From: Mustelus asterias
Taxonomy: Eukaryota
Reading direction: 5' to 3'
Length of the DNA: 64,000 nucleotides
Assembly: GCF_964213995.1 (NCBI RefSeq)
Contig: NC_135830.1
Coordinates: 8,866,001-8,930,000, forward strand
A program made the translations under genes and the position numbers. The notes below the pieces were generated by a model. It was not told the DNA's origin. It saw only the letters and a program-made list of their open reading frames with translations, and searched no databases. Positions 30,574 through 64,000 of the stretch are shown piece after piece. Positions within the stretch are counted from its first letter, which is position 1. Each line of letters opens with the position of its first letter.

Positions 30574-30920
30574 ATATGTGTTAAATAATGCATTGATATT
30601 AAATATTGAAACAAATACTGAGTACAATTGTAAAATGAGCTTTGACAAAGTATCATCTGGACTCGAAATGTCAGCTATTTTCTATCCTTACAGGTGCTGC
30701 CAGACCTTGTGAGATTTTCCTGCATTTTCTCTTTTGGTTTCCGATTCCAGAATCCGCAGTAATTTGCTTTTATTACGGAGTACAAATGGTTCAGATTATT
30801 CGAAGGAAGATGTGAATGATGCATTAATGAATGAGCAGAAATCATTGCTCCCTCAGATATTTGTCAGACGAACCCTTTTAAATTTTAAAGTTCCAGGTAA
30901 GTTGAGCAATCAGATGGAAA

Positions 30921-31734
30921 ATTGGGCGGAGAAATGGTAGATGGAATTTAATTCAGATCAATGCGAAGTGATGCATTTTGGAAGAACGAATGTCGGGGGG
31001 AGTTATACAATAAACGGCAGAGCCACCAAGAGTATAGAAACACAGAGGGGCCTAGGTGTGCAAGTCCACAAATCCTTGAAGGTGGCAGCACAGGTGGAGA
31101 AGGTGGTGAAGAAGGCATATGGTATGCTTATCCTTATAGGACGGGCTATAGATTTTAAAAGCTGGAGTCTGATGTTGCAGCTGTATAGAACGCTGGTTAG
31201 GCCACATTTGGAGTACTGCATCCAGTTCTGGTCGCCGCACTATCAGAAGGACGTGGAAGCTTTAGAGAGAGTGCAGAGAAGGTTTACCAGGATGTTGCCT
31301 GGTATGGAGGGTCTTAGCTATGAGGAGAGATTGGGTAAACTGGAATTGTTCTCCCTGGAAAGACGGGAATGAGGGGAGACCTAATAGAGGTGTACAAGAT
31401 TATGAGGGGTATAGATAGGGTGAACAGTGGGAAGATTTTACCCAGGTCGGAGGTGACGATCACGAGGGGTCAAGGGCTCAAGGTGAGAGGGGCGTGATAT
31501 AACTCAGATATCAGAGGGACGTTTTTTTGCACAGAGAGTGGTGGGAGCCTGGAATGCGCTGCCAAGTAGCGTTGTGGAGGTAAACACGCTGGCATCGTTT
31601 AAGACTTACCTGGATAGTCACAGGAGCTGTCTGGGAGTGGAGGGATACAAACGAATGGTCTCGTTGGACCAATGAGCGGCACAGGCTTGGAGGGCCGAAG
31701 GTCCTGTTTCCTGTGCTGTACTGTTCTTTGTTCT
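30921..31734 (+). mobile_element. CR1-type LINE inserted in an edge array unit
   Basis: ORF 30941-31372 (QCEVMHFG, LVRPHLEYCIQFWSPHY); (TTCTTTG)n tail; splits CAGAT.GAAA|GTAACGG. Confidence 0.92.
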
Positions 31735-31860
31735 TTGAAAGTAACGGGTACCTTCCTGAAACAAGTGACATGGGCTCTCAGTCTAACCATTGGAACCTGC
31801 AGAAATACAGCGCAGTTGAACATTGCAGGAAGGCCGATTTGCTGTAGTCTGCTGTCAGCA

Positions 31861-31933
31861 GTTGCTGTAGTGTAGTTGCTATCATGTTCGCCTCACACGC
31901 AAGCGGCCCCGGGTTTGAAACTGAGTAGAAACA
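31861..31933 (+). pseudogene. tRNA-Val(CAC) pseudogene
   Basis: CCTCACACGC anticodon arm; many stem mismatches. Confidence 0.8.
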
Positions 31934-32707
31934 TTCATTAAGCTTTCCCATGCAGGGTGAGGGAAACCTGTGTGATTTCAGTTCGTTGCTGAACATTATC
32001 CGAATCTCGACGTGACAGCCATATTATCTTTGTTCAGACCTTGGCCACAAATTCTTTCTGCTAAGTAAGAAATGCTGATAGTTTTTTGATGCACTGGCAG
32101 GAAAGAAACGTTTCGATTTTGACACCGTGTATATATTCGCATCACGTTCAGTCTACAACAGAATTTAAGGGGTTTATAGGTGCAGACTAACATCGTTATT
32201 CACCATCTGAAACTTTTCTAATCGTAGTATGTGCTCCAGAAGACTGACGCAAATGCTACTGTAAGTGAACTAGAGGAAATGTTGCACATTTCCCAGGAGA
32301 ATCTCTACTGAAACCGTTCTTCATGACAAAGAAATAGGGAAAAAAACCATTCAGACAGATGAGGAAATCGAGCCTCAATGCGGATCTAGTGGACTTTCCA
32401 ATAGATGGCCGGAACTGATGCGCCTGAAAGTTTCACGCCCATAATAAAAAAGGCTCCACTGTCACTAACAGACAATTCTTCAAAGTCTTCCATTTAAATG
32501 TGGTTGACTTTGTTTAAAAGCTGGCCATAGTCAATCTCAAAATTGTGATCTGTATTACCCGGTGACTCGATTCATTCTGTTGCTCAGTTATGTTTGCAAT
32601 TCATTGACGTTCACTTTCAGAGATATCCAATTCATAATGAAGACATATGTGTTAAATAATGCCTTGATACTAAATAGTGAAACAAATACTGAGTACAATT
32701 GCACAAT

Positions 32708-32748
32708 GAGCTTTGACAAAGTGTCGTCTGGACTCGAAACGCCAGCTC
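32708..32748 (+). ncRNA. Penelope-type minimal type I hammerhead-like motif (U3-A8 core), edge copy with intact stem I
   Basis: GAGCT-TTGACAA-A-GTGTC(GTCTG)GACTC-GAAA-CGCC-AGCTC, followed by a Penelope-like tail CAGATGCTGCCAGA..CAGCATTTT..TTCAGATTCCAGCATCTGC. Confidence 0.55.
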
Positions 32749-33143
32749 TTTTCTCTCCTTACAGATGCTGCCAGATCTTGTGAGAATTTCCAGCATTTTA
32801 TCTTTTGGTTTCAGATTCCAGCATCTGCGGTAACTGGCTTTTATTACTGAGTACAATTGGTTGAGATTATTCGAAGGAGGATGAAAATGATGCATTAATG
32901 AATGGGCAGAAATCATTGCTCCCTCAGATATTTGCCAGACGAACGCTTCTAAGTTTTGAAGTTCAAGATAAGTTGAGCAATCAGGTTGAAAGTCGCGGTT
33001 ATCTTCCCGACACAAGTCACATGGGGGTAGGGGGGGGGGGTGGCGGAGGAGAGGGGGTTCTCAGTCTAACCATTTGAACGTGCAGCAATACAGCACAGTT
33101 GAACATTGCAAACAGGCCGATTTGCTCTAATGTCACTCAAGCT

Positions 33144-33216
33144 GTTTCTGTAGTGTAGTGGTTCTGACGTTCGCCTGACACGCGAAAAGTCCCCAGTTCA
33201 AAACCACGCAGAAACG
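33144..33216 (+). pseudogene. tRNA-Val pseudogene (anticodon GAC)
   Basis: CCTGACACGCG arm; D- and T-stem mismatches. Confidence 0.8.
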
Positions 33217-33386
33217 TTCGTTAAGCTTCTTCATGTCGTGTAAGGGAAAATTGCTTAATTTCAGTTCGTTGCTCATCACCATGCGAGCCTCGATGTTAAA
33301 GGCGCGTTATCCTTGCTCTGACATCACCCTCAAATGCTTGCTGTAAAATAAGGAACAGGCCGATTTGCTGTCGTCACTTATCAGCT

Positions 33387-33459: not shown

Positions 33460-34613
33460 TTCATTCATCTTTCTCATGTAGGGGGAGAGAAATCTGTATC
33501 ATTTCAGTTCATTGCTGAACATTATCCGAATCTCGATGTTACAGCCATATTATCTTTGCCCTAAACCTGGGCCTCAAATGTTTTCTATAAAATAAGAAAT
33601 GCTGATTCATTTTTTGACACACTGACAGGAAAGAAACGTTTCGATTGTGACACATATTCGCATCTCGTTCAGTCTACAACAGAATTTAATGGGTTTATAG
33701 GTGCAGACTAACATGGTTAATCACCATCTGAAACATATCTTATAGTAATGTGTGCTCCAGAAGACTGACACAAGTGATCTACATGAAAGACACTCATTTC
33801 CCACAAGATTCTTTTTTGAAATCGTTCTTCACAACAAAGAAATAGGGAGAAAAAAAAACTCAGACAGATGAGGGAATCGAGACTCAGTGCGGTTCTCCTG
33901 GACTTTCCTATTAATGGCCAGAATTTATGCGTCTGAATGTTTCACGCCCATTATAAAAAAGGCTCAAGTGTCACGAACAGATAATTCTTGAATCTCTTCC
34001 ATTCAAATGAAGTTGACTCTGTGTGAAAGCTGACTATGGTCAATCGCAAAATTGCGATCGGTATTACCCGGTGACTCGATTCCTTCTGTTGGTCAGTTAT
34101 GTTTGCAATTCAATGATATTCAATTTCAGAGATATTCAATTCATAATGACGTGTTAAATAATGCATTGATGCTAAATATTGAAACAAATACTGAGTACAA
34201 TTGTAAAATGAGCCTTGACAAAGTGTCATCTGGACTTGAAACGACAGCCCTTTTCACTCCTTACATTTGCTGTCAGAGCTTCTGAGATTTTCCAGCATTT
34301 TCTCTTTTGGTTTCCTATTCCAGCATCCGCAGTAATTTGCTTTTATTACTGAGTACAGTTGGTTGAGATTATTCGAAGAAAGATGAGAATGATGCATTAA
34401 TGAATGGGCAGAAATCATTGCTCCCTTAGATATTTGCGGGACGAACGCTTTTAAATTTTGATGTTTGAGATAAGTTGAGCAATCAGATTGAAAGTAACGG
34501 TTATCTTCCTGAATTCAGTGACATGGGCTCTCAGTCTCACCATCGGAACCTGCAACAAGACAGCGGAGTTGAACATTGCAGATAGGCAGCTTTGCTCTAA
34601 CGTGTTTTAGGCT

Positions 34614-35435: not shown

Positions 35436-35476
35436 AAGCTTTGATAAAGTGTCATCTGGACTCGAAACGTCCGCCC
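35436..35476 (+). ncRNA. Hammerhead-like motif, representative of the homogenised units (unit anchor +146 to +186)
   Basis: AAGCT-TTGATAA-A-GTGTC(ATCTG)GACTC-GAAA-CGTC-CGCCC; core and ACGT palindrome intact, stem I weakened. Confidence 0.45.
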
Positions 35477-35826
35477 TTTTCACTCCTTACAGGTGCTGCC
35501 AGACATTGGGAGATTTTGCAGCATTTTCTCTTTTCTCATCCGCAGTAATTTGCTTTTATTACTGAGTACAAATGATTGAGATGATTCGAAGAAAGATGAA
35601 GATGATGCATTAACGAATGAGCAGAAATCATTGCTCCCTTAGATATTTGCCAGAAGAAGGATTTTGAATTTTGATGTTCGGGATAAGTCGTACAATCAGA
35701 TTGAAAGTGACGGTTATCTTCCTGAATTCAGTCACATGGGCTCTCAGTCTCACCATCGGAACCTGCAGCAACACAGCGTAGTTGAACATTGCAGACAGGC
35801 AGATTTGCTCCAGTGCGATTACAGCT

Positions 35827-35899
35827 GTTTCTGTAGTGTAGTGGTTATCACGTTCGCCTAACACGCGAAAGGTCCCTGGTTCGAAACCAGGCAGAAACA
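35827..35899 (+). tRNA. tRNA-Val(AAC), intact cloverleaf
   Basis: GTTTCTGTAGTGTAGTGGTTATCACGTTCGCCTAACACGCGAAAGGTCCCTGGTTCGAAACCAGGCAGAAACA; TTTT at 35941. Confidence 0.93.
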
Positions 35900-36002
35900 T
35901 TCATTAAGCTTCCTCATGTCGTGGAAGTGAAAATTGCTTGTTTTCAGTTCGTTGCTCATCATTATCCGAGCCTCGATGTGAAAGGCATGTTATCATTAAG
36001 CT

Positions 36003-36075
36003 GTTTCTGTGGTGTCGTGGTTATCACATTCGCCTAACACGTGGAAAGTCACCGGTTCGAAACCAGGCAGAAACA
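36003..36075 (+). pseudogene. Second, degenerate tRNA-Val(AAC) of long units, fused to a SINE
   Basis: GTTTCTGTGGTGTCGTGG..CTAACACGTGGAAAGTCACCGGTTCGAAACCAGGCAGAAACA; A14 lost, stems mismatched. Confidence 0.85.
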
Positions 36076-36077
36076 TA

Positions 36078-36247
36078 GGGTAGCACAGTGGCACATCAGT
36101 TAAGACTGCTGCCTCAAGGCGCCAGGGTCCCAGGTTCGATTCCCAGTTTGGATCACTGTCTGCGCGGAGTCTGCATCTTCTCCCCGTGTCTGCATGGGTT
36201 TCCTCCGGGTGCGCCGGTCTCCTCCCACAGTCTGAAAGACATGCTGG
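36078..36247 (+). mobile_element. HE1-type SINE 5' half, co-amplified in all 12 long units (starts 75 nt after each second tRNA start)
   Basis: GGGTAGCACAGTGGCACA..GGTTCGATTCCC..GTGTCTGCATGGGTTTCCTCCGGGTGC..CCCACAGTCTGAAAGACATGCTGG; no 3' tail. Confidence 0.88.
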
Positions 36248-37288
36248 CATCACCCTCAAATGCTTTCTGTGAAATAAGAAACGTTTTTTTTGACGCACTG
36301 ACAGGAAAGTTCGATTTTGACACCAGCACTTATTCGCATCTCGTTCAGTCTACAGCAGAATTTAATGGGTTTATAGGTGCAGACTAATATGGTTAATCAG
36401 CATCTGAAATATCTGACAGTAGTGTGTGCTCAAAAAGACAGATACAAGTCATACTGCAAGTGAACTAGAGGAAATGACGCACATTTCACACAAGATCTAT
36501 TTTTAAATCGTTTTTCATCACTGAGAAACAGGAAAGGCCACTCAGACAGATGAGAGAATCGAGGCTCAGTGCGGATCGACTGGACTTTCCGGTAAAGGTC
36601 CGGAAGTTATGCGCCTAAATGTTTCAGGCCCATAATTAAAAGGCTCAAGCGTCACGAACAGATCATTCTTGATTTTTCTCCATTTAAATGCAGTTGACTT
36701 TGTTTAAAAGCTGACGATAGTCAATCTCAAATTTGCGATCTGTATTTCCCGGTGATTCGATTCGTTCTGTTGGGCAGTTTTGTTTGCAATTCAGTGATGT
36801 TCAATTTCAGAGATATTCAATTCATAATGAAGACATATATGTTAAATAACGCATTGATATTAAATATTGAAAGAAATACTGAGTACAATTGTACAATGAG
36901 CTTTGATAAAGTGTCATCTGGACTCGAAACAGCCGCCCTTTTCACTCCTTACAGGTGCTGCCAGACATTGGGAGATTTTGCAGCATTTTCTCTTTTCTCA
37001 TCCGCAGTAATTTGCTTTTATTACTGAGTACAAATGATTGAGATGATTCGAAGAAAGATGAAGATGATGCATTAACGAATGAGCAGAAATCATTGCTCCC
37101 TTAGATATTTGCCAGAAGAAGGATTTTGAATTTTGATGTTCGGGATAAGTCGTACAATCAGATTGAAAGTGACGGTTATCTTCCTGAATTCAGTCACATG
37201 GGCTCTCAGTCTCACCATCGGAACCTGCAGCAACACAGCGTAGTTGAACATTGCAGACAGGCAGATTTGCTCCACTGCTCTTCCAGCT

Positions 37289-37361
37289 GTTTCTGTAGTG
37301 TAGTGGTTATCACGTTCGCCTAACACGCGAAAAGTCCCTGGTTCGAAACCAGGCAGAAACA
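37289..37361 (+). tRNA. tRNA-Val(AAC)
   Basis: As 35827 with a variable-loop G>A. Confidence 0.88.
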
Positions 37362-37464
37362 TTCATTAAGCTTCCTCGTGTCGTGGAAGGGAAAATTGCT
37401 TGTTTTCAGTTCGTTGCTCATCATTCTCCGAGCCTCGATGTGAAAGGCATGTTATCATTAAGCT

Positions 37465-37537
37465 GTTTCTGTGGTGTCGTGGTTATCACATTCGCCTAAC
37501 ACGTGGAAAGTCACCGGTTCGAAACCAGGCAGAAACA
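37465..37537 (+). pseudogene. Degenerate tRNA-Val of the SINE cassette
   Basis: Copy of 36003. Confidence 0.83.
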
Positions 37538-38750
37538 TAGGGTAGCACAGTGGCACAGCAGTTAAGACTGCTGCCTCAAGGCGCCAGGGTCCCAGGTTCG
37601 ATTCCCAGTTTGGATCACTGTCTGCGCGGAGTCTGCATCTTCTCCCCGTGTCTGCATGGGTTGCCTCCGGGTGCGCCGATCTCCTCCCACTGTCTGAAAG
37701 ACATGCTGGCATCACCCTCAAATGCTTTGTGTGAAATAAGAAACGTTTTTTTTGACGCACTGACAGGAAATTTCGATTTTGACACCAGCACTTATTCGCA
37801 TCTCGTTCAGTCTACAGCAGAATTTAATGGGTTTATAGGTGCAGACTAATATGGTTAATCAGCATCTGAAATATCTGACAGTAGTGTGTGCTCAAAAAGA
37901 CAGATACAAGTCATACTGCAAGTGAACTAGAGGAAATGACGCACATTTCACACGAGATCTATTTTTAAATCGTTTTTCATCACTGAGAAACAGGAAAAGC
38001 CACTCAGACAGATGAGGGAATCGAGGCTCAGTGCGGATCTACTGGACTTTCCGGTAAAGGTCCGGAAGTTATGCGCCTAAATGTTTCAGGCCCATAATTA
38101 AAAGGCTCAAGCGTCACGAACAGATCATTCTTGATTTTTCTCCATTTAAATGCAGTTGACTTTGTTTAAAAGCTGACGATAGTCAATCTCAAATTTGCGA
38201 TCTGTATTACCCGGTGATTCGATTCGTTCTGTTGGGCAGTTTTGTTTGCAATTCAGTGATGTTCAATTTCAGAGATATTCAATTCATAATGAAGACATAT
38301 ATGTTAAATAACGCATTGATATTAAATATTGAAAGAAATACTGAGTACAATTGTACAATGAGCTTTGATAAAGTGTCATCTGGACTCGAAACATCCGCCC
38401 TTTTCACTCCTTACAGGTGCTGCCAGACATTGGGAGATTTTGCAGCATTTTCTCTTTTCTCATCCGCAGTAATTTGCTTTTATTACTGAGTACAAATGAT
38501 TGAGATGATTCGAAGAAAGATGAAGATGATGCATTAACGAATGAGCAGAAATCATTGCTCCCTTAGATATTTGCCAGAAGAAGGATTTTGAATTTTGATG
38601 TTCGGGATAAGTCGTACAATCAGATTGAAAGTGACGGCTATCTTCCTGAATTCAGTCACATGGGCTCTCAGTCTCACCATCGGAACCTGCAGCATCACAG
38701 CGTAGTTGAACATTGCAGACAGGCAGATTTGCTCCACTGCTATTCCAGCT

Positions 38751-38823
38751 GTTTCTGTAGTGTAGTGGTTATCTCGTTTGCCTAACACGCGAAAGGTCCC
38801 TGGTTCGAAACCAGGCAGAAACA
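38751..38823 (+). tRNA. tRNA-Val(AAC), D-stem mismatch
   Basis: ATCTCGTTTGCC variant. Confidence 0.7.
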
Positions 38824-38926
38824 TTCATTAAGCTTCCTCATGTCGTGGAAGGTAAAATTGCTTGTTTTCAGTTCGTTGCTCATCATTATCCGAGCCTCGA
38901 TGTGAAAGGCATGTTATCATTAAGCT

Positions 38927-38999
38927 GTTTCTGTGGTGTCGTGGTTATCACATTCGCCTAACACGTGGAAAGTCACCGGTTCGAAACCAGGCAGAAACA
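38927..38999 (+). pseudogene. Degenerate tRNA-Val of the SINE cassette
   Basis: Copy of 36003. Confidence 0.83.
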
Positions 39000-40196
39000 T
39001 AGGGTAGCACAGTGGCACATAAGTTAAGACTGCTGCCTCAAGGCGCCAGGGTCCCAGGTTCGATTCCCAGTATGGATCACTGTCTGCGCGGAGTCTGCAT
39101 CTTCTACCCGTGTCTGCATGGGTTTCCTCCGGGTGCGCCGGTCTCCTCCCACAGTCTGAAAGACATGCTGGCATCACCCTCAAATGCTTTGTGTGAAATA
39201 AGAAACGTTTTTTTTGACGCACTGACAGGAAATTTCGATTTTGACACCAGCACTTATTCGCATCTCGTTCAGTCTACAGCAGAATTTAATGGGTTTATAG
39301 GTGCAGACTAATATGGTTAATCAGCATCTGAAATATCTGACAGTAGTGTGTGCTCAAAAAGACAGATACAAGTCATACTGCAAGTGAACTAGAGGAAATG
39401 ACGCACATTTCACACAAGATCTATTTTTAAATCGTTTTTCATCACTGAGAAACAGGAAAAGCCACTCAGAAAGATGAGAGAATCGAGGCTCAGTGCGGAT
39501 CGACTGGACTTTCCGGTAAAGGTCCGGAAGTTATGCGCCTAAATGTTTCAGGCCCATAATTAAAAGGCTCAAGTGTCACGAACAGATAATTCTTGATTTT
39601 TCTCCATTTAAATGCAGTTGACTTTGTTTAAAAGCTGACCATAGTCAATCTCAAATTTGCGATCTGTATTTCCCGGTGATTCGATTCGTTCTGTTGGGCA
39701 GTTTTGTTTGCAATTCAGTGATGTTCAATTCATAATGAAGACATATATTTTAAATAACGCATTGATATTATATATTGAAACAAATACTGTGTACAATTGT
39801 ACAATAAGCTTTGATAAAGTGTTATCTGGACTCTAAACGTCCGCCCTTTTCGCTCCTTACAGGTGCTGCCAGACATTGGGAGATTTTGCAGCATTTTCTC
39901 TTTTCTCATCCGCAGTAATTTGCTTTTATTACTGAGTACAATTGATTGAGATGATTCGAAGAAAGATGAAGATGATGCATTAACGAATGAGCAGAAATCA
40001 TTGCTCCCTTAGATATTTGCCAGAAGAACGGTTTTGAATTTTGATGTTCGGGATAAGTCGTACAATCAGATTGAAAGTAACGGTTATCTTCCTGAATTCA
40101 GTCACATGGGCTCTCAGTCTCACCATCGGAACCTGCAGCATCACAGCGTAGTTGAACATTGCAGACAGGCAGATTTGCTCCAGTGCAATGACAGCT

Positions 40197-40269
40197 GTTT
40201 CTGTAGTGTAGTGGTTATCACATTTGCCTAACACGCGGAAGGTCCCTGGTTCGAAACCAGGCAGAAACG
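40197..40269 (+). tRNA. tRNA-Val(AAC) variant (G73, weakened anticodon stem)
   Basis: ACATTTGCC..GCGGAAGG..GAAACG. Confidence 0.7.
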
Positions 40270-41417
40270 TTCATTGAGCTTCCTCATGTCGCGTAAGGGA
40301 AAATTGATTGATTTTTGTTTGTTCCTCATCATTATACGAGCCTCGATGTTAACGGCATGTTATCATTGCTCTGACGTCACCCTCAATTGCTTTCTGTGAA
40401 ATAAGAAACGCTTTTTTTTGACGCACTGACAGGAAAGTTCGATTTTGACACCAGCACTTATTCGCATCTCGTTCAGTCTACAGCAGAATTTAATGGGTTT
40501 ATAGGTGCAGACTAATATGGTTAATCGCCATCTGAAATATCTGACAGTAGTGTGTGCTCAAAAAGACAGATACAAGTCATACTGTAAGTGAACTCGAGGA
40601 AATGGCGCACATTTCACAGAAGAATCTTTTAAAAATCGTTTTCATCACTGAGAAATAGGAAAAGCCACTCAGACAGATGAGGGAATCGAGACTCAGTGCG
40701 GATCTACTGGACTTTCCTGTAATCGGCCGGAATTTATGCGCCTGAATGTTTCACGCCCGTAATAAAAAAGGCTCAACTGTCACGAACAGATCATTCTTGA
40801 TTCTCCTCCATTTAAATGCAGTTGACTTTGTTGAAAAGCTGACCAGAGTCAATCTCAAATTTGCGATCTGTATTTCCCGGTGATTCGCTTCGTCCTGTTG
40901 GTCAGTTCTGTTTGCAATTCAGTGATGTTCAGTTTCAGAGATATTCAATTCATAATGAAGACATATGTGTTAAATAAGGCATGGATATTAAATATTGAAA
41001 GAAATACTGTGTACAATTGTACAATGAGCTTTGATAAAGTGCCATCTGGATTCGAAACGTCCGCCCTTTTCGCTCCTTACAGGTGCTGCCAGACATTGGG
41101 AGATTTTGCAGCATTTTCTCTTTTCTCATCCGCAGTAATTTGCTTTTATTACTGAGTACAATTGATTGAGATGATTCGAAGAAAAATGAAAATGATGCAT
41201 TAACGAATGGGCAGAAATCATTGCTCCCTTAGATATTTGCCAGAAGAACGGTTTTGAATTTTGATGTTCGGGATATGTCGCACAATCAGATTGAAAGTGA
41301 CGGTTATCTTCCTGAATTCAGTGACAATGGGCTCTCAGTCTAACCATCGGAACCTGCAGCAACACAGCGTAGTTGAACATTGCAGGCAGGCAGATTTGCT
41401 CCACTGCTATTCCAGCT

Positions 41418-41490
41418 GTTTCTGTAGTGTAGTGGTTATCACGTTCGCCTAACACGCGGAAGGTCCCTGGTTCGAAACGAGGCAGAAACA
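41418..41490 (+). tRNA. tRNA-Val(AAC) variant (T-stem mismatch)
   Basis: GCGGAAGG..GAAACGAGG. Confidence 0.7.
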
Positions 41491-41593
41491 TTCATTAAGC
41501 TTCCTCATGTCGTGGAAGGGAAAATTGCTTGTTTTCATTTCGTTGCTCATCATTATCCGAGCCTCGATGTGAAAGGCATGTTATCATTAAGCT

Positions 41594-52384: not shown

Positions 52385-53600
52385 TAGGGTAGCACAGTGG
52401 CACAGCAGTTAAGACTGCTGCCTCAAGGCGCCAGGGTCCCAGGTTCGATTCCCAGTTTGGATCACTGTCTGCGCGGAGTCTGCATCTTCTCCCCGTGTCT
52501 GCATGGGTTTCCTCCGGGTTCGCCGGTCTCCTCCCACTGTCTGAAAGACATGCTGGCATCACCCTCAAATGCTTTCTGTGAAATAAGAAACGTTTTTTTT
52601 GACGCACTGACAGGAAATTTCGATTTTGACACCAGCACTTATTCGCATCTCGTTCAGTCTACAGCAGAATTTAATGGGTTTATAGGTGCAGACTAATATG
52701 GTTAATCAGCATCTGAAATATCTGACAGTAGTGTGTGCTCAAAAAGACAGATACAAGTCATACTGCAAGTGAACTAGAGGAAATGACGCACATTTCACAC
52801 AAGATCTATTTTTAAATCGTTTTTCATCACTGCGAAACAGGAAAAGCCACTCCAAGACAGATGAGGGAATCGAGGCTCAGTGCGGATCTACTGGACTTTC
52901 CGGGAAAGGTCAGGAAGTTATGCGCCTAAATGTTTCAGGCCCATAATTAAAAAGGCTCAAGTGTCACGAACAGATAATTCTTGATTTTTCTCCATTTAAA
53001 TGCAGTTGACTCTGTTTAAAAGCTGACGACAGTCAATCTCAAATTTGCGATCTGTATTTCCCGGTGATTCGATTCGTTCTGTTGGGCAGTTTTGTTTGCA
53101 ATTCAGTGATGTTCAATTTCAGAGATATTCAATTCATAATGAAGACATATATGTTAAATAACGCATTGATATTAAATATTGAAACAAATACTGTGTACAA
53201 TTGTACAATAAGCTTTGATAAAGTGTCATCTGGACTCGAAACGTCCGCCCTTTTCACTCCTTACAGGTGCTGCCAGACATTGGGAGATTTTGCAGCATTT
53301 TCTCTTTTCTCATCCGCAGTAATTTGCTTTTATTACTCAGTACAATTGATTGAGATGATTCGAAGAAAGATGAAGATGATGCATTAACGAATGAGCAGAA
53401 ATCATTGCTCCCTTAGATATTTGCCAGAAGAACGGTTTTGAATTTTGATGTTCGGGATAAGTCGTACAATCAGATTGAAAGTAACGGTTATCTTCCTGAA
53501 TTCAGTCACATGGGCTCTCAGTCTCACCATCGGAACCTGCAGCATCACAGCGTAGTTGAACATTGCAGACAGGCAGATTTGCTCCAGTGCAATGACAGCT

Positions 53601-53673
53601 GTTTCTGTAGTGTAGTGGTTATCACATTCGCCTAACACGCGAAAGGTCCCTGGTTCGAAACCAGGCAGAAACG
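53601..53673 (+). tRNA. tRNA-Val(AAC) variant
   Basis: HOR copy of 42883. Confidence 0.8.
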
Positions 53674-54822
53674 TTCATTGAGCTTCCTCATGTCGCGTAA
53701 GGGAAAATTGATTGATTTTTGTTTGTTCCGAATCATTATACGAGCCTCGATGTTAACGGCATGTTATCATTGCTCTGACGTCACCCTCAAATGCTTCCTA
53801 TGAAATAAGAAACGCTTTTTTTTGACGCACTGACAGGAAAGTTCGATTTTGACACCGAACACTTATTCGCATCTCGTTCAGTCGACAACAGAATTTAATG
53901 GGTTTATAGGTGCAGACTAATATGGTTAATCGCCATCTGAAATATCTGACAGTAGTGTGTGCTCAAAAAGACAGATACAAGTCATACTGTAAGTGAACTC
54001 GAGGAAATGGCGCACATTTCACAGAAGAATCTTTTTAAAATCGTTTTCATCACTGAGAAATAGGAAAAGCCACTCAGACAGATGAGGGAATCGAGACTCA
54101 GTGCGGATCTACTGGACTTTCCTGTAATCGGCCGGAATTTATGCGCCTGAATGTTTCACGCCCGTAATAAAAAAGGCTCAACTGTCACGAACAGATCATT
54201 CTTGATTCTCCTCCATTTAAATGCAGTTGACTTTGTTGAAAAGCTGACCAGAGTCAATCTCAAATTTGTGATCTGTATTACCCGGTGATTCGCTTCGTTC
54301 TGTTGGTCAGTTATGTTTGCAATTCAGTGATGTTCAGTTTCAGAGATATTCAATTCATAATGAAGACATATGTGTTAAATAAGGCATGGATATTAAATAT
54401 TGAAAGAAATACTGTGTACAATTGTACAATGAGCTTTGATAAAGTGCCATCTGGATTCGAAACATCCGCCCTTTTCACTCCTTACAGGTGCTGCCAGACA
54501 TTGGGAGATTTTGCAGCATTTTCTCTTTTGTCATCCGCAGTAATTTGCTTTTATTACTGAGTACAAATGATTGAGATGATTCGAAGAAAAATGAAAATGA
54601 TGCATTAACGAATGGGCAGAAATCATTGCTCCCTTAGATATTTGCCAGAAGAACGGTTTTGAATTTTGATGTTCGGGATCAGTCGTACAATCAGATTGAA
54701 AGTGACGGTTATCTTCCTGAATTCAGTGACAATGGGCTCTCAGTCTAACCATCGGAACCTGCAGCAACACAGCGTAGTTGAACATTGCAGGCAGGCAGAT
54801 TTGCTCCACTGCTATTCCAGCT

Positions 54823-54895
54823 GTTTCTGTAGTGTAGTGGTTATCACGTTCGCCTAACACGCGGAAGGTCCCTGGTTCGAAACGAGGCAGAAACA
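54823..54895 (+). tRNA. tRNA-Val(AAC) variant
   Basis: Copy of the 41418 type. Confidence 0.7.
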
Positions 54896-54998
54896 TTCAT
54901 TAAGCTTCCTCATGTCGTGGAAGGGAAAATTGCTTGTTTTCATTTCGTTGCTCATCATTATCCGAGCCTCGATGTGAAAGGCATGTTATCATTAAGCT

Positions 54999-55071
54999 GT
55001 TTCTGTGGTGTCGTGGTTATCACATTCGCCTAACACGTGGAAAGTCACCGGTTCGAAACCAGGCAGAAACA
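54999..55071 (+). pseudogene. Degenerate tRNA-Val of the SINE cassette
   Basis: Copy of 36003. Confidence 0.83.
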
Positions 55072-56287
55072 TAGGGTAGCACAGTGGCACAGCAGTTAAG
55101 ACTGCTGCCTCAAGGCGCCAGGGTCCCAGGTTCGATTCCCAGTTTGGATCACTGTCTGCGCGGAGTCTGCATCTTCTCCCCGTGTCTGCATGGGTTTCCT
55201 CCGGGTTCGCCGGTCTCCTCCCACTGTCTGAAAGACATGCTGGCATCACCCTCAAATGCTTTCTGTGAAATAAGAAACGTTTTTTTTGACGCACTGACAG
55301 GAAATTTCGATTTTGACACCAGCACTTATTCGCATCTCGTTCAGTCTACAGCAGAATTTAATGGGTTTATAGGTGCAGACTAATATGGTTAATCAGCATC
55401 TGAAATATCTGACAGTAGTGTGTGCTCAAAAAGACAGATACAAGTCATACTGCAAGTGAACTAGAGGAAATGACGCACATTTCACACAAGATCTATTTTT
55501 AAATCGTTTTTCATCACTGCGAAACAGGAAAAGCCACTCCAAGACAGATGAGGGAATCGAGGCTCAGTGCGGATCTACTGGACTTTCCGGGAAAGGTCAG
55601 GAAGTTATGCGCCTAAATGTTTCAGGCCCATAATTAAAAAGGCTCAAGTGTCACGAACAGATAATTCTTGATTTTTCTCCATTTAAATGCAGTTGACTCT
55701 GTTTAAAAGCTGACGACAGTCAATCTCAAATTTGCGATCTGTATTTCCCGGTGATTCGATTCGTTCTGTTGGGCAGTTTTGTTTGCAATTCAGTGATGTT
55801 CAATTTCAGAGATATTCAATTCATAATGAAGACATATATGTTAAATAACGCATTGATATTAAATATTGAAACAAATACTGTGTACAATTGTACAATAAGC
55901 TTTGATAAAGTGTCATCTGGACTCGAAACGTCCGCCCTTTTCACTCCTTACAGGTGCTGCCAGACATTGGGAGATTTTGCAGCATTTTCTCTTTTCTCAT
56001 CCGCAGTAATTTGCTTTTATTACTCAGTACAATTGATTGAGATGATTCGAAGAAAGATGAAGATGATGCATTAACGAATGAGCAGAAATCATTGCTCCCT
56101 TAGATATTTGCCAGAAGAACGGTTTTGAATTTTGATGTTCGGGATAAGTCGTACAATCAGATTGAAAGTAACGGTTATCTTCCTGAATTCAGTCACATGG
56201 GCTCTCAGTCTCACCATCGGAACCTGCAGCATCACAGCGTAGTTGAACATTGCAGACAGGCAGATTTGCTCCAGTGCAATGACAGCT

Positions 56288-56360
56288 GTTTCTGTAGTGT
56301 AGTGGTTATCACATTCGCCTAACACGCGAAAGGTCCCTGGTTCGAAACCAGGCAGAAACG
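56288..56360 (+). tRNA. tRNA-Val(AAC) variant
   Basis: Copy of the 42883 type. Confidence 0.8.
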
Positions 56361-57508
56361 TTCATTGAGCTTCCTCATGTCGCGTAAGGGAAAATTGATT
56401 GATTTTTGTTTGTTCCGAATCATTATACGAGCCTCGATGTTAACGGCATGTTATCATTGCTCTGACGTCACCCTCAAATGCTTTCTATGAAATAAGAAAC
56501 GCTTTTTTTTGACGCACTGACAGGAAAATTCGATTTTGACACCGAACACTTATTCGCATCTCGTTCAGTCGACAACAGAATTTAATGGGTTTATAGGTGC
56601 AGACTAATATGGTTAATCGCCATCTGAAATATCTGACAGTAGTGTGTGCTCAAAAAGACAGATACAAGTCATACTGTAAGTGAACTCGAGGAAATGGCGC
56701 ACATTTCACAGAAGAATCTTTTTAAAATCGTTTTCATCACTGAGAAATAGGAAAAGCCACTCAGACAGATGAGGGAATCGAGACTCAGTGCGGATCTACT
56801 GGACTTTCCTGTAATCGGCCGGAATTTATGCGCCTGAATGTTTCACGCCCGTAATAAAAAAGGCTCAACTGTCACGAACAGATCATTCTTGATTCTCCTC
56901 CATTTAAATGCAGTTGACTTTGTTGAAAAGCTGACCAGAGTCAATCTCAAATTTGTGATCTGTATTACCCGGTGATTCGCTTCGTTCTGTTGGTCAGTTA
57001 TGTTTGCAATTCAGTGATGTTCAGTTTCAGAGATATTCAATTCATAATGAAGACATATGTGTTAAATAAGGCATGGATATTAAATATTGAAAGAAATACT
57101 GTGTACAATTGTACAATGAGCTTTGATAAAGTGCCATCTGGATTCGAAACATCCGCCCTTTTCACTCCTTACAGGTGCTGCCAGACATTGGGAGATTTTG
57201 CAGCATTTTCTCTTTTGTCATCCGCAGTAATTTGCTTTTATTACTGAGTACAAATGATTGAGATGATTCGAAGAAAAATGAAAATGATGCATTAACGAAT
57301 GGGCAGAAATCATTGCTCCCTTAGATATTTGCCAGAAGAACGGTTTTGAATTTTGATGTTCGGGATCAGTCGTACAATCAGATTGAAAGTGACGGTTATC
57401 TTCCTGAATTCAGTCACATGGGCTCTCAGTCTCACCATCGGAACCTGCAGCAACACAGCGTAGTTGAACATTGCAGACAGGCAGATTTGCTCCACTGCTC
57501 TTCCAGCT

Positions 57509-57581
57509 GTTTCTGTAGTGTAGTGGTTATCACGTTCGCCTAACACGCGAAAAGTCCCTGGTTCGAAACCAGGCAGAAACA
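57509..57581 (+). tRNA. tRNA-Val(AAC)
   Basis: HOR copy of 44104. Confidence 0.88.
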
Positions 57582-57684
57582 TTCATTAAGCTTCCTCATG
57601 TCGTGGAAGGGAAAATTGCTTGTTTTCAGTTCGTTGCTCATCATTATCCGAGCCTCGATGTGAAAGGCATGTTATCATTAAGCT

Positions 57685-57757
57685 GTTTCTGTGGTGTCGT
57701 GGTTATCACATTCGCCTAACACGTGGAAAATCATCGGTTCGAAACCAGGCAGAAACA
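57685..57757 (+). pseudogene. Degenerate tRNA-Val of the SINE cassette
   Basis: Copy of 44280. Confidence 0.83.
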
Positions 57758-58969
57758 TAGGGTAGCACAGTGGCACAGCAGTTAAGACTGCTGCCTCAAG
57801 GCGCCAGGGTCCCAGGTTCGATTCCCTGTTTGGATCACTGTCTGCGCGGAGTCTGCATCTTCTCCCCGTGTCTGCATGGGTTTCCTCCGGGTGCGCCGGT
57901 CTCCTCCCACAGTCTGAAAGACATGCTGGCATCGCCCTCAAATGCTTTGTGTGAAATAAGAAACGTTTTTTTTGACGCACTGACAGGAAATTTCGATTTT
58001 GACACCAGCACTTATTCGCATCTCGTTCAGTCTACAGCAGAATTTAATGGGTTTATAGGTGCAGACTAATATGGTTAATCAGCATCTGAAATAACTGACA
58101 GTAGTGTGTGCTCAAAAAGACAGATACAAGTCATACTGCAAGTGAACTAGAGGAAATGACGTACATTTCACACAAGATCTATTTTTAAATCGTTTTTCAT
58201 CACTGAGAAACAGGAAAAGCCACTCAGACAGATGAGAGAATCGAGGCTCAGTGCGGATCTACTGGACTTTCCGGGAAAGGTCCGGAAGTTATGCGCCTAA
58301 ATGTTTCAGGCCCATAATTAAAAGGCTCAAGTGTCACGAACAGATAATTCTTGATTTTTCTCCATTTAAATGCAGTTGACTTTGTTTAAAAGCTGACGAT
58401 AGTCAATCTCAAATTTGCGATCTGTATTTCCCGGTGATTCGATTCGTTCTGTTGGGCAGTTATGTTTGCAATTCAGTGATGTTCAATTTCAGAGATATTC
58501 AATTCATAATGAAGACATATATGTTAAATAACGCATTGATATTAAATAGTGAAACAAATACTGAGTACAATTGTACAATAAGCTTTGATAAAGTGTCATC
58601 TGGACTCGAAACATCCGCCCTTTTCACTCCTTACAGGTGCTGCCAGACATTGGGAGATTTTGCAGCATTTTCTCTTTTCTCATCCGCAGTAATTTGCTTT
58701 TATTACTGAGTACAATTGATTGAGATGATTCGAAGAAAGGTGAAGATGATGCATTAACGAATGAGCAGAAATCATTGCTCCCTTAGATATTTGCCAGAAG
58801 AACGGTTTTGAATTTGATGTTCGGGATAAGTCGTACAATCAGATTGAAAGTAACGGTTATCTTCCTGAATTCAGTCACATGGGCTCTCAGTCTCACCATC
58901 GGAACCTGCAGCATCACAGCGTAGTTGAACATTGCAGACAGGCAGATTTGCTCCAGTGCAATGACAGCT

Positions 58970-59042
58970 ATTTCTGTAGTGTAGTGGTTATCACATTCGC
59001 CTAACCCGCGAAAGGTCCCTGGTTCGAAACCAGGCAGAAACG
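58970..59042 (+). pseudogene. tRNA-Val(AAC), probably non-functional
   Basis: HOR copy of 45565. Confidence 0.75.
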
Positions 59043-60190
59043 CTCATTGAGCTTCCTCATGTCGCGTAAGGGAAAATTGATTGTTTTTTGTTTGTTCCGA
59101 ATCATTCTCCGAGCCTCGATGTTCACGGCATGTTATCATTGCTCTGACGTCACCCTCAATTGCTTTCTGTGAAATAAGAAACGCTTTTTTTTGACGCACT
59201 GACAGGAAAGTTCGATTTTGACACCGAACACTTATTCGCATCTCGTTCAGTCTACAGCAGAATTTAATGGGTTTACAGGTGCAGACTAATATGGTTAATC
59301 AGCATCTGAAATATCTGACAGTAGTGTGTGCTCAAAAAGACAGATACAAGTCATACTGCAAGTGAACTAGAGGAAATGACGCACATTTCACACAAGATCT
59401 ATTTTTAAATCGTTTTTCATCACTGAGAAACAGGAAAAGCCACTCAGACAGATGAGAGAATCGAGGCTCAGTGCGTATCTACTGGACTTTCCGGTAAAGG
59501 TCCGGAAGTTATGCGCCTAAATGTTTCAGGCCCATAATTAAAAGGCTCAAGTGTCACGAACAGATAATTCTTGATTTTTCTCCATTTAAATGCAGTTGAC
59601 TTTGTTTAAAAGCTGACGATAGTCAATCTCAAATTTGCGATCTGTATTTCCCGGTGATTCGATTCGTTCTGTTGGGCAGTTTTGTTTGCAATTCAGTGAT
59701 GTTCAATTTCAGAGATATTCAATTCATAATGAAGACATATGTGTTAAATAAGGCATGGATATTAAATATTGAAAGAAATACTGTGTACAATTGTACAATG
59801 AGCTTTGATAAAGTGCCATCTGGATTCGAAACATCCGCCCTTTTCACTCCTTACAGGTGCTGCCAGACATTGGGAGATTTTGCAGCATTTTCTCTTTTGT
59901 CATCCGCAGTAATTTGCTTTTATTACTGAGTACAATTGATTGAGATGATTCGAAGAAAAATGAAAATGATGCATTAACGAATGGGCAGAAATCATTGCTC
60001 CCTTAGATATTTGCCAGAAGAACGGTTTTGAGTTTTGATGTTCGGGATAAGTCGTACAATCAGATTGAAAGTGACGGTTATCTTCCTGAATTCAGTGACA
60101 TGGGCTCTCAGTCTCACCATCGGAACCTGCAGCATCACAGCGTAGTTGAACATTGCAGACAGGCAGATTTGCTCCAGTGCAATGGTAGCT

Positions 60191-60263
60191 GTTTCTGTAG
60201 TGTAGTGGTTATCACATTCGCCTAACACGCGAAAGGTCCCTGGTTCGAAACCAGGCAGAAACA
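60191..60263 (+). tRNA. tRNA-Val(AAC)
   Basis: HOR copy of 46786. Confidence 0.87.
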
Positions 60264-61411
60264 CTCATTGAGCTTCCTCATGTCGCGTATGGGAAAATTG
60301 ATTGATTTTTGTTTGTTCCTAATAATTATACGAGCCTCGATGTTAACGGCATGTTATCATTGCTCTGACATCACCCTCAAATGCTTTCTGTGAAATAAGA
60401 AACGCTTTTTTTTGACGCACTGACAGGAAAATTCGATTTTGACACCGAACACTTATTCGCATCTCGTTCAGTCTACAACAGAATTTAATGGGTTTATAGG
60501 TGCAGACTAATATGGTTAATCGCCATCTGAAATATCTGACAGTAGTGTGTGCTCAAAAAGACAGATACAAGTCATACTGTAAGTGAACTCGAGGAAATGG
60601 CGCACATTTCACAGAAGAATCTTTTTAAAATCGTTTTCATCACTGAGAAATAGGAAAAGCCACTCAGACAGATGAGGGAATCGAGACTCAGTGCGGATCT
60701 ACTGGACTTTCCTGTAATCGGCCGGAATTTATGCGCCTGAATGTTTCACGCCCGTAATAAAAAAGGCTCAACTGTCACGAACAGATCATTCTTGATCCAA
60801 CTCCATTTAAATGCAGTTGACTTTGTTTAAAAGCTGACGATAGTCAATCTCAAATTTGCGATCTGTATTTCCCGGTGATTCGATTCGTTCTGTTGGGCAG
60901 TTTTGTTTGCAATTCAGTGATGTTCAATTTCAGAGATATTCAATTCATAATGAAGACATATATGTTAAATAACGCATTGATATTAAATATTGAAAGAAAT
61001 ACTGAGTACAATTGTACAATGAGCTTTGATAAAGTGTCATCTGGACTCGAAACAGCCGCCCTTTTCACTCCTTACAGGTGCTGCCAGACATTGGGAGATT
61101 TTGCAGCATTTTCTCTTTTCTCATCCGCAGTAATTTGCTTTTATTACTGAGTACAAATGATTGAGATGATTCGAAGAAAGATGAAGATGATGCATTAACG
61201 AATGAGCAGAAATCATTGCTCCCTTAGATATTTGCCAGAAGAAGGATTTTGAATTTTGATGTTCGGGATAAGTCGTACAATCAGATTGAAAGTGACGGTT
61301 ATCTTCCTGAATTCAGTCACATGGGCTCTCAGTCTCACCATCGGAACCTGCAGCAACACAGCGTAGTTGAACATTGCAGACAGGCAGATTTGCTCCACTG
61401 CTCTTCCAGCT

Positions 61412-61484
61412 GTTTCTGTAGTGTAGTGGTTATCACGTTCGCCTAACACGCGAAAAGTCCCTGGTTCGAAACCAGGCAGAAACA
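61412..61484 (+). tRNA. tRNA-Val(AAC)
   Basis: HOR copy of 37289/48007. Confidence 0.88.
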
Positions 61485-61587
61485 TTCATTAAGCTTCCTC
61501 GTGTCGTGGAAGGGAAAATTGCTTGTTTTCAGTTCGTTGCTCATCATTATCCGAGCCTCGATGTGAAAGGCATGTTATCATTAAGCT

Positions 61588-61660
61588 GTTTCTGTGGTGT
61601 CGTGGTTATCACATTCGCCTAACACGTGGAAAGTCACCGGTTCGAAACCAGGCAGAAACA
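61588..61660 (+). pseudogene. Degenerate tRNA-Val of the SINE cassette
   Basis: Copy of 36003. Confidence 0.83.
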
Positions 61661-62873
61661 TAGGGTAGCACAGTGGCACAGCAGTTAAGACTGCTGCCTC
61701 AAGGCGCCAGGGTCCCAGGTTCGATTCCCAGTTTGGATCACTGTCTGCGCGGAGTCTGCATCTTCTCCCCGTGTCTGCATGGATTGCCTCCGGGTGCGCC
61801 GATCTCCTCCCACTGTCTGAAAGACATGCTGGCATCACCCTCAAATGCTTTGTGTGAAATAAGAAACGTTTTTTTTGACGCACTGACAGGAAATTTCGAT
61901 TTTGACACCAGCACTTATTCGCATCTCGTTCAGTCTACAGCAGAATTTAATGGGTTTATAGGTGCAGACTAATATGGTTAATCAGCATCTGAAATATCTG
62001 ACAGTAGTGTGTGCTCAAAAAGACAGATACAAGTCATACTGCAAGTGAACTAGAGGAAATGACGCACATTTCACACGAGATCTATTTTTAAATCGTTTTT
62101 CATCACTGAGAAACAGGAAAAGCCACTCAGACAGATGAGGGAATCGAGGCTCAGTGCGGATCTACTGGACTTTCCGGTAAAGGTCCGGAAGTTATGCGCC
62201 TAAATGTTTCAGGCCCATAATTAAAAGGCTCAAGCGTCACGAACAGATCATTCTTGATTTTTCTCCATTTAAATGCAGTTGACTTTGTTTAAAAGCTGAC
62301 GATAGTCAATCTCAAATTTGCGATCTGTATTTCGCGGTGATTCGATTCGTTCTGTTGGGCAGTTTTGTTTGCAATTCAGTGATGTTCAGTTTCAGAGATA
62401 TTCAATTCATAATGAAGACCTATATGTTAAATAACGCATTGATATTAAATATTGAAACAAATACTGAGTACAATTGTACAATGAGCTTTGATAAAGTGCC
62501 ATCTGGACTCGAAACGTCCGCCCTTTTCATTCCTTACAGGTGCTGCCAGACATTGGGAGATTTTGCAGCATTTTCTCTTTTCTCATCCGCAGTAATTTGC
62601 TTTTATTACTGAGTACAATTGATTGAGATGATTCGAAGAAAGATGAAGATGATGCATTAACGAATGAGCAGAAATCATTGCTCCCTTAGATATTTGCCAG
62701 AAGAAGGATTTTGAATTTTGATGTTCGGGATAAGTCGTACAATCAGATTGAAAGTGACGGTTATCTTCCTGAATTCAGTCACATGGGCTCTCAGTCTCAC
62801 CATCGGAACCTGCAGCATCACAGCGTAGTTGAACATTGCAGACAGGCAGATTTGCTCCACTGCTATTCCAGCT

Positions 62874-62946
62874 GTTTCTGTAGTGTAGTGGTTATCACGT
62901 TTGCCTAACACGCGAAAGGTCCCTGGTTCGAAACCAGGCAGAAACA
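62874..62946 (+). tRNA. tRNA-Val(AAC) variant
   Basis: CACGTTTGCC (G-U in the anticodon stem). Confidence 0.8.
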
Positions 62947-63049
62947 TTCATTAAGCTTCCTCATGTCGTGGAAGGGAAAATTGCTTGTTTTCAGTTCGTT
63001 GCTCATCATTATCCGAGCCTCGATGTGAAAGGCATGTTATCATTAAGCT

Positions 63050-63122
63050 GTTTCTGTGGTGTCGTGGTTATCACATTCGCCTAACACGTGGAAAATCACC
63101 GGTTCGAAACCAGGCAGAAACA
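63050..63122 (+). pseudogene. Degenerate tRNA-Val of the SINE cassette
   Basis: Copy of 36003. Confidence 0.83.
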
Positions 63123-64000
63123 TAGGGTAGCACAGTGGCACATCAGTTAAGACTGCTGCCTCAAGGCGCCAGGGTCCCAGGTTCGATTCCCAGTATGGAT
63201 CACTGTCTGCGCGGAGTCTGCATCTTCTACCCGTGTCTGCATGGGTTTCCTCCGGGTGCGCCGGTCTCCTCCCACAGTCTGAAAGACATGCTGGCATCAC
63301 CCTCAAATGCTTTGTGTGAAATAAGAAACGTTTTTTTTGACGCACTGACAGGAAATTTCGATTTTGACACCAGCACTTATTCGCATCTCGTTCAGTCTAC
63401 AGCAGAATTTAATGGGTTTATAGGTGCAGACTAATATGGTTAATCAGCATCTGAAATATCTGACAGTAGTGTGTGCTCAAAAAGACAGATACAAGTCATA
63501 CTGCAAGTGAACTAGAGGAAATGACGCACATTTCACACAAGATCTATTTTTAAATCGTTTTTCATCACTGAGAAACAGGAAAAGCCACTCAGAAAGATGA
63601 GAGAATCGAGGCTCAGTGCGGATCGACTGGACTTTCCGGTAAAGGTCCGGAAGTTATGCGCCTAAATGTTTCAGGCCCATAATTAAAAGGCTCAAGTGTC
63701 ACGAACAGATAATTCTTGATTTTTCTCCATTTAAATGCAGTTGACTTTGTTTAAAAGCTGACCATAGTCAATCTCAAATTTGCGATCTGTATTTCCCGGT
63801 GATTCGATTCGTTCTGTTGGGCAGTTTTGTTTGCAATTCAGTGATGTTCAATTCATAATGAAGACATATATGTTAAATAACGCATTGATATTATATATTG
63901 AAACAAATACTGTGTACAATTGTACAATAAGCTTTGATAAAGTGTTATCTGGACTCTAAACGTCCGCCCTTTTCGCTCCTTACAGGTGCTGCCAGACATT

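Follow-up and report, generated by a model that had tools for sequence, protein, structure and literature searches.

A decayed Penelope-like minimal hammerhead in a tRNA-Val array of Mustelus asterias, very probably an inactive passenger

One question raised by the tRNA-Val array on contig NC_135830.1 of Mustelus asterias is whether the hammerhead-like motif that recurs in it is an RNA-cutting device or a relic. In the window, by which we mean the whole 64-kb stretch that was analysed, the motif occurs 25 times, always on the plus strand, from 30637 to 63929. A sequence-only reading had described it as a U3-A8 minimal hammerhead about 355 nt upstream of each tRNA-Val, and had suggested that neighbouring copies cut read-through transcripts as dimers, while granting that it might be a dead passenger. 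The motif lies where it was reported, with the edge copies at 30637, 32708 and 34210 among the 25 counted; the predicted cut site, after 35471, is 355 nt before the tRNA-Val at 35826; and U3 and A8 are found in all 25 copies. It is the caveat that now gives the best account, on the grounds of descriptor failure, an unstable fold and decay at the background rate: very probably, the motif is a Penelope-like minimal hammerhead on one 138-bp fragment that gained its copies as an inactive passenger in DNA-level duplication of the tRNA unit.

Within the homogenised part of the array the motifs are spaced 1220-1466 bp apart, the 21 complete units have a mean pairwise identity of 96.2%, and there are 21 first-copy tRNA-Val(AAC) genes; the array extends about 5.3 kb beyond the window end (features in Table 1). 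The degenerate tRNA-Val of the 1.46-kb units, together with the adjoining head that we take to be SINE-like, is a second passenger. The insert-free unit that holds the empty site has a weak tRNA-like gene at about 28978-29052.

Table 1. Coordinates of the insert, its flanks and the associated genes in the window
Feature	Position	Strand	Remarks
Empty site: single diverged target copy	28713..28726	+	homologous tRNA-Val-like unit without insert
Edge copy of insert, 138 bp	30637..30774	+	stem II with two mismatches; C15.2 -> T
Target-site duplication, 5' copy, 14 bp	32688..32701	+	followed by 6-nt filler
Penelope-like pLTR fragment, edge copy	32708..32845	+	138 bp; U16.1 lost
Minimal hammerhead of this edge copy	32708-32748	+	then pyrimidine tract, CAG/ATG, tail
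Target-site duplication, 3' copy	32846..32859	+	identical to 5' copy at 32688..32701
Edge copy of insert, 138 bp	34210..34347	+	U16.1 lost; stem I broken
First homogenised copy, 125 bp	35436..35560	+	13-bp tail deletion
22 homogenised copies of 125-bp insert	35436..64000	+	within 1.22/1.46-kb units; motif starts 35436, 36898, 38360, 39806, 41026, 42492, 43713, 45175, 46395, 47616, 49078, 50524, 51744, 53210, 54431, 55897, 57118, 58580, 59800, 61021, 62483, 63929
tRNA-Val(AAC) gene of unit	35826..35900	+	390-391 nt downstream of each motif start
Second, degenerate tRNA-Val and presumed SINE-like head	36002..36250	+	only in 1.46-kb units; 36.7 bits in Rfam scan

The origin of the motif is to be sought outside the array. 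A 34-nt pattern of the motif has 5,499 exact matches in the genome and its reversed control none, so the motif is not a chance occurrence; a pattern from the tail, outside the ribozyme, has 8,939. Sorted by their 3-8 state, the 5,499 matches comprise 3192 U3-A8, 1451 C3-G8, 517 C3-A8, 141 U3-G8 and 198 others, that is, a U3-A8 subfamily and a sister C3-G8 subfamily, each keeping a Watson-Crick 3-8 pair. The 3-8 covariation holds in the family, as one split and not as many events. Of 24 sampled copies long enough to include the 5' core, 19 are U3-A8; this subfamily is large and apparently young. Its intact members have the core, an extra nucleotide between 9 and 10.1, G10.1-C11.1, a palindromic 15/16, a short stem I and the pLTR position; stem II of the family majority, GGGTC/GACTC, is fully paired, and the majority sequence passes the hammerhead descriptor. 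The composite drawn up in the earlier reading is the state of the array's founder, not the family consensus. Pfam gave no match with the first two short ORF remnants; longer remnants upstream of the motif, in copies L145 and L149, gave weak matches to RVT_1 (E 0.006) and GIY-YIG (E 0.007), below the curated cut-offs, and a PDB sequence search with the RT remnant found nothing. Homology to this family identifies the motif as a minimal hammerhead belonging to a dispersed Penelope-like (RT and GIY-YIG) subfamily, of type I and with a U3-A8 core, as had been supposed. We considered, and rejected, an origin of U3-A8 within the array through C-to-T change and CpG decay: most of the dispersed subfamily is in that state.

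The motif had also been thought to be built into the tRNA-Val unit; it was instead inserted there. In all 24 complete window copies a 14-bp target-site duplication flanks the insert on both sides, and true empty sites account for 23 of 160 junction matches in the genome, at other loci besides that at 28713. As judged from these flanks, the insert carries the signature of a Penelope-like pLTR insertion. Genome-wide, 306 copies bear the junction. The founder insert matches the majority sequence of the dispersed family at all but 4 of 137 sites, and the tail variant of the tRNA lineage occurs in none of 179 dispersed tails. That all tRNA-linked copies have a single junction, a single duplication and tail changes private to them establishes, by sequence comparison, their descent from one insertion.

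Every array copy is damaged, as the caveat that no single copy is perfect had foreseen. GAAACGTC is intact in 7 of the 25 window copies, exactly those of the seven units previously named (motif starts 35436, 41026, 42492, 51744, 53210, 55897 and 62483); core and palindrome are whole in these seven, one further copy has a G-U palindrome, and 17 are damaged. Even the copy at 35436, with core and palindrome intact, has stem I pairs 1.1 and 1.4 broken and a T-T at 10.2. A strict hammerhead descriptor is passed by none of the 25 window copies, by none of 112 other tRNA-linked copies and by 8 of 30 dispersed copies picked by tail alone; a relaxed one by 0/25, 5/112 (3/108 distinct places) and 10/30, respectively. 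The lesions are nested. Position 10.2 of stem II is T, and the pair broken, in 25/25 window copies, which leaves no continuous stem II (at least 4 pairs from 10.1). The family's GGG start of stem II is found in 0/306 junction-bearing copies genome-wide, so the T-T mismatch, to judge by its distribution, is a lesion of the founder copy. The weakening of stem I noted earlier in homogenised copies amounts to loss of the core-adjacent pair, 1.1-2.1, in all 22; it is kept in two window copies, both at the edge, and 74 of the 77 short inserts have C at 1.1, as does 1 of the 58 long ones. We also asked whether T10.2 might mark off a subfamily as the source: it occurs in 49 dispersed matches (about 1.5% of 3,192), and the 20 inspected differ in their flanks and are without the tail changes of the tRNA lineage. 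We read it there as recurrent mutation; there may be a minor subfamily. Two U3-A8 copies 1,464 bp apart on C12 (L078 and L079) were likewise set aside: they are not tRNA units, and C11.1 is missing in both.

Natural hammerheads tolerate a very weak stem II, even U10.1-U11.1, in the available part of PMC3088659, so the T-T lesion alone need not abolish activity. Across 72 distinct inserts the ribozyme differs at 332 of 2848 positions (11.7%) and its own tail at 703 of 6081 (11.6%), counts that are not independent because the inserts share ancestry; decay at the rate of the flanking sequence is the outcome that the sequence-only reading had set against its own proposal. Parsimony on a tree placed 33 changes at 13 core sites vs 39.6 expected (P=0.25); the tRNA genes of the same alignment, the positive control, had 98 vs 80 expected and so are no more conserved than spacer, for which reason the tree test may be underpowered and we use it as supporting evidence. 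Restricting the count to the 55 units whose tRNA could be called gives 7 core changes where 13.3 were expected (P=0.10), which hints weakly at constraint. On the tree, no change falls on U3, A13 or A14.

These data bear on whether array motifs act as cis dimers, cutting read-through transcripts to unit length in the style of retrozymes or newt satellite 2, which we consider very unlikely. The head-to-tail, single-strand geometry would in principle permit a nested double-hammerhead fold, both partners keep core and palindrome in 41026+42492 and in 51744+53210, and the hint of core conservation in one subset points the same way. Against this stand the loss of pairs 1.1 and 10.2, the background rate of decay and the predicted energies: the double-hammerhead fold of adjacent window copies comes to -3.5 to +8.6 kcal/mol, with no predicted stability, vs -15.9 and -20.7 kcal/mol for intact dispersed copies; for 41026+42492 it is +2.8 kcal/mol, less favourable by 20 kcal/mol than the best competitor, where the gap for intact copies is 8; and folding z is -0.17 to +1.09 in five window copies vs -2.24 in one intact dispersed copy. 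Moreover, 5-8 runs of at least four T, which are Pol III terminator-like, separate each tRNA from the following motif in 21/21 intervals; units measure 1.2-1.5 kb vs 170-400 nt in the accessible part of PMC7229834; and intact minimal hammerheads themselves cut poorly as dimers or trimers in vitro, according to the part of PMC4209133 available. A bolder version, more doubtful still, holds that the captured hammerhead made the tRNA-Val unit a retrozyme-like replicon, whose dimer-cut RNA circles were reverse-transcribed and seeded tandem arrays across the tRNA-cluster chromosome, some adjacent copies still cutting read-through transcripts.

Activity might instead reside outside the window, in a few older tRNA-linked copies that have the T-T lesion only and could partner any family transcript for weak cleavage in trans, with no role for the array; we judge this very unlikely. 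Copies in the founder state exist (L028, L030, L103), the founder-state homodimer fold is -13.7 kcal/mol, and that state has 64 matches in the genome, 15 of them on C71 and the small contigs bearing tRNA clusters; however, none of these 15 adjoins another, none is in the window, and a 4-bp palindrome would presumably need a high local concentration of partner. There is finally the sceptical position that what reads as a hammerhead is a retrotransposon end whose resemblance to one is due to chance. The suggested Rfam scan of the window, at E<=5, matched tRNAs only and no hammerhead, probably because stem III is missing, and the single split behind the 3-8 covariation can be counted on the same side; but intact family copies show every feature listed for Penelope minimal hammerheads, with a Watson-Crick 3-8 pair in both subfamilies, and we give the position almost no credence.

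For the inactive passenger, then, the history runs as follows. The source is a U3-A8 subfamily of thousands of dispersed copies, in which remnants of RT and GIY-YIG lie upstream of the motif; there, in line with the proposal made for Penelope elements, the ribozyme would act as a dimer and cut the element's precursor RNA after GUC. A single insertion founded all tRNA-linked copies, empty-site units surviving; G10.2 of the founder's stem II had become T before the first duplication, and later the AAC lineage lost stem I pairs 1.1 and 1.4 plus 13 bp of tail. Unequal crossing-over or gene conversion would then have spread and homogenised the unit, fixing the lesions. Cleavage by any array copy would be too slow to be of use, and two motifs would not regularly share a transcript.

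As found, the array motif matters little: it is a known kind of retrotransposon ribozyme, decayed and hitch-hiking in a tRNA cluster. Array cleavage, if true, would connect ribozymes with tRNA gene amplification. The insert and its nested lesions provide a clean marker of the order in which the tRNA-Val clusters duplicated, and the U3-A8 and C3-G8 sister subfamilies, as a naturally occurring pair, lend themselves to tests of the 3-8 swap in a minimal hammerhead. A 2017 RNA Biology paper reportedly concerns small Penelope hammerhead variants. Our literature search found no vertebrate U3-A8 Penelope case, though that paper or the 2014 supplements to the work cited below could contain one, and no precedent for a ribozyme link to tRNA gene amplification.

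Penelope elements of Schistosoma provide a published precedent for U3-A8 minimal hammerheads: the accessible part of Cervera and De la Pena 2014 (PMC4209133) describes minimal hammerheads in Penelope-like pLTRs, including the U3-A8 variant of Cercyon in Schistosoma mansoni. The present family shares with these the U3-A8 core, the extra nucleotide before stem II, G10.1-C11.1, a stem I of 4-5 bp, a palindrome in place of stem III, the position behind an RT and GIY-YIG ORF and the prevalence of single, truncated, scattered copies; it differs in its vertebrate host, in a stem II of 5 bp vs 7-8, and in that a single copy has multiplied at least 306-fold within clusters of tRNA genes, with each array copy damaged. 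Non-LTR retrozymes and newt satellite 2, in the portions available of PMC7229834 and bioRxiv 10.64898/2026.07.22.740005, likewise have a head-to-tail motif derived from a type I hammerhead of Penelope pLTR origin. However, the tandem unit of non-LTR retrozymes is about 150-450 bp, or at most 1000 in the 2026 pipeline, whereas array units here are longer, at 1220-1466 bp, and 0/25 window copies are complete. [quoted passage not shown] The expanded tRNA gene clusters of sharks and rays (bioRxiv 10.1101/2025.06.08.657570), whose main text, in the part available, does not mention Penelope or ribozymes, are the closest parallel to the setting itself, with very many clustered tRNA loci on few chromosomes, here C71.

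The tRNA-Val units run in tandem from about 31.8 kb to the end of the window, and a short-anchor scan of the window finds 25 copies of the motif, on the + strand only. All 25 have U3 and A8, and all have T at position 10.2. The sequence-only reading identified this motif correctly as a Penelope-like minimal hammerhead; the seven units that it listed as keeping GAAACGTC are exactly those returned by the scan, and its spacing holds, predicted cut and tRNA lying 355 nt apart. Rfam, which it had proposed as a check, gives no hammerhead match in the window at E ≤ 5. The 22 homogenised units (of the AAC lineage) are 1220-1466 bp long, with a mean identity of 96.2% among the 21 complete ones; the three older edge units are 82-88% identical to them. 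The 1.46-kb and 1.22-kb unit types differ by a degenerate second tRNA-Val with a SINE-like head, a further passenger that multiplied along with the array.

Features of the array and its surroundings (window positions unless a contig is named)
Position	Feature	Remarks
25286-26173	LINE-type fragment interrupting edge units	open stretch of 296 codons; CR1/L2-type reverse transcriptase look (label given by eye)
27900-29760	two further degenerate tRNA-Val-like units	left of the range of the sequence-only reading; no Penelope insert
28713	empty site	inside window; downstream-junction match without insert
29762-30570	LINE-type fragment interrupting edge units	
30906-31740	LINE-type fragment interrupting edge units	
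35471	predicted cut (after this base)	
35477-35500 and equivalents	pyrimidine tract	followed by CAG then GTG in AAC lineage and 30637 copy; by CAG then ATG in the element
35826	tRNA	
36002-36250 and its counterpart in every 1.46-kb unit	degenerate second tRNA-Val	SINE-like head of ~170 bp
G000:C12:14604400 and 14605864	U3-A8 copies (loci L078/L079)	same strand, 1,464 bp apart; no tRNA link; C11.1 changed in both

The array motif descends from a Penelope minimal hammerhead. The 3.68-Gb genome contains 5,499 exact matches to a 34-nt motif pattern and 0 to its reversed control; positions 3 and 8 are U3-A8 in 3,192, C3-G8 in 1,451, C3-A8 in 517, U3-G8 in 141 and other pairs in 198. Only two subfamilies appear among the matches listed, one combining U3-A8 with a GUC triplet, the other C3-G8 with GUU; the 3-8 covariation sought by the sequence-only reading is therefore real, but represents a single evolutionary event. 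The listed C3-A8 matches otherwise carry mostly the letters of the C3-G8/GUU subfamily, and most of them would be CpG decay products of it. A pattern drawn from the tail (the insert beyond the ribozyme), without any ribozyme overlap, has 8,939 exact genome matches; 24 of the first 30 such loci extend to the 5' core, 19 of these 24 with U3-A8, and dispersed copies (those outside tRNA units) chosen by tail lie about 5% from the majority in ribozyme and tail alike. Upstream of the motif, long copies have a pyrimidine-rich stretch and then a decayed ORF, whose remnants in loci L145 and L149 give matches below the Pfam cut-off to RVT_1 (E 0.006) and to GIY-YIG (E 0.007). The order is RT, endonuclease, ribozyme, the same layout as that of the Penelope-like elements in the accessible text of PMC4209133. 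The element's CAG and ATG are likely a splice acceptor and start. Many dispersed copies, loci L117, L132, L133, L055 and L060 among them, are head-to-head inverted pairs joined at the palindromic stem I arm, which suggests that the 5' end of family inserts is often set there.

Beside tRNA-Val, the 5' junction is identical in every tRNA-linked copy examined (139 matches in the window and 50 of the fetched loci, two of which are the window again). A 14-bp direct repeat brackets the Penelope part, which measures 138 bp in the old units and 125 bp in those of the AAC lineage; the 5' side also has a filler of 6 nt. Among 160 downstream-junction matches, the insert precedes 136, 23 mark empty sites where the target occurs once (one place was fetched twice), and one has an insert with a deletion; ARAGORN at a relaxed setting places a tRNA-like gene 256-266 nt downstream in 20 of the 24 non-filled matches. 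Compared with the majority of dispersed copies, that of 22 long inserts shows 4 differences over 137 sites: G10.2 to T in the ribozyme, and three more in the tail. None of 179 dispersed tails carries the two-base tail change of the tRNA lineage; we infer from these that one copy gathered private mutations before its first duplication. Genome-wide, the junction pattern has 306 copies, none followed by the family's GGG stem II; the 100 junction matches listed are all on C71, a contig bearing tRNA clusters, and on small contigs, which may include assembly duplicates. The two degenerate units at the left extend the ancestry of the array.

The family's stem II has five continuous pairs and its stem I four. 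A strict descriptor, which asks for the core, a Watson-Crick 3-8 pair, the palindrome and four continuous pairs per stem, passes 0/25 window copies, 0/112 other tRNA-linked copies and 8/30 dispersed ones; a relaxed one passes 0/25, 5/112 (3/108 distinct places, four having been fetched twice) and 10/30. C stands at 1.1 and 1.4 in 22/22 homogenised copies, and this change accompanies the 13-bp deletion (74/77 short inserts versus 1/58 long); thus the most-amplified lineage is the most damaged. By nearest-neighbour estimates, which leave out tertiary contacts, the double-hammerhead fold of 41-nt motif pairs has -20.7 and -15.9 kcal/mol in intact dispersed copies, -13.7 in the best tRNA-linked copy (L028) and -3.5 to +8.6 in four adjacent window pairs; the best competing fold is 15-26 kcal/mol away for window pairs versus 8 for intact copies. 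By the same kind of estimate, single window motifs fold no better than shuffles.

Constraint, for which the sequence-only reading had looked to slower decay, finds no support in divergence from the family majority: 11.7% in the ribozyme (332/2848) and 11.6% in the tail (703/6081) over 72 distinct inserts, whose shared ancestry makes the counts non-independent. On a tree built from 103 distinct units, against a base- and CpG-matched background, the core has 33 changes versus 39.6 expected (P=0.25), and core plus stems 91 versus 101 (P=0.24); for the 55 units whose tRNA-Val is callable the figures are 7 versus 13.3 (P=0.10) and 38 versus 35.4. In the same test the tRNA genes show no conservation (98 changes versus 80), which puts its power in doubt and counts against reading the motif as a dead passenger. 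The fallback named by the sequence-only reading is favoured: the array motif is very probably a dead passenger. Along the aligned units (window, L002-L030, L091-L110), tRNA-Val genes change at the spacer rate on the tree and anticodons differ among paralogous units (AAC, CAC, GAC, TAC and others); many may therefore be pseudogenes.

A dimer in cis needs two motifs on one RNA. Between a tRNA and the next motif there are 5-8 runs of at least four T in each of 21/21 intervals, 2-5 of them of at least five. Such runs terminate Pol III transcription; therefore, only Pol II read-through could supply a two-motif substrate.

A 2017 paper reportedly concerns small Penelope hammerhead variants. It and the supplements of PMC4209133 may bear on novelty; in the literature as accessible, our search found no paper dealing with a shark-like U3-A8 subfamily or with tRNA arrays that contain hammerheads. 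Retrozyme units are some 170-400 nt (PMC7229834, in part) and carry a complete motif in two consecutive units (bioRxiv 10.64898/2026.07.22.740005, in part); the array units are 1.2-1.5 kb and no consecutive pair has complete motifs, so the array is not a retrozyme, contrary to the likeness first drawn. Large tRNA clusters have been reported from sharks and rays (bioRxiv 10.1101/2025.06.08.657570, in part). U3-A8 covariation is natural, with prior in vitro activity (PMC3088659, in part), and about 1,300 U3-A8 minimal hammerheads are already known in Schistosoma; Penelope minimal hammerheads carry an additional nucleotide ahead of stem II and cleave poorly, even when joined as dimers or trimers (both from the accessible text of PMC4209133). 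Within its source family, the motif would act as these minimal hammerheads do.
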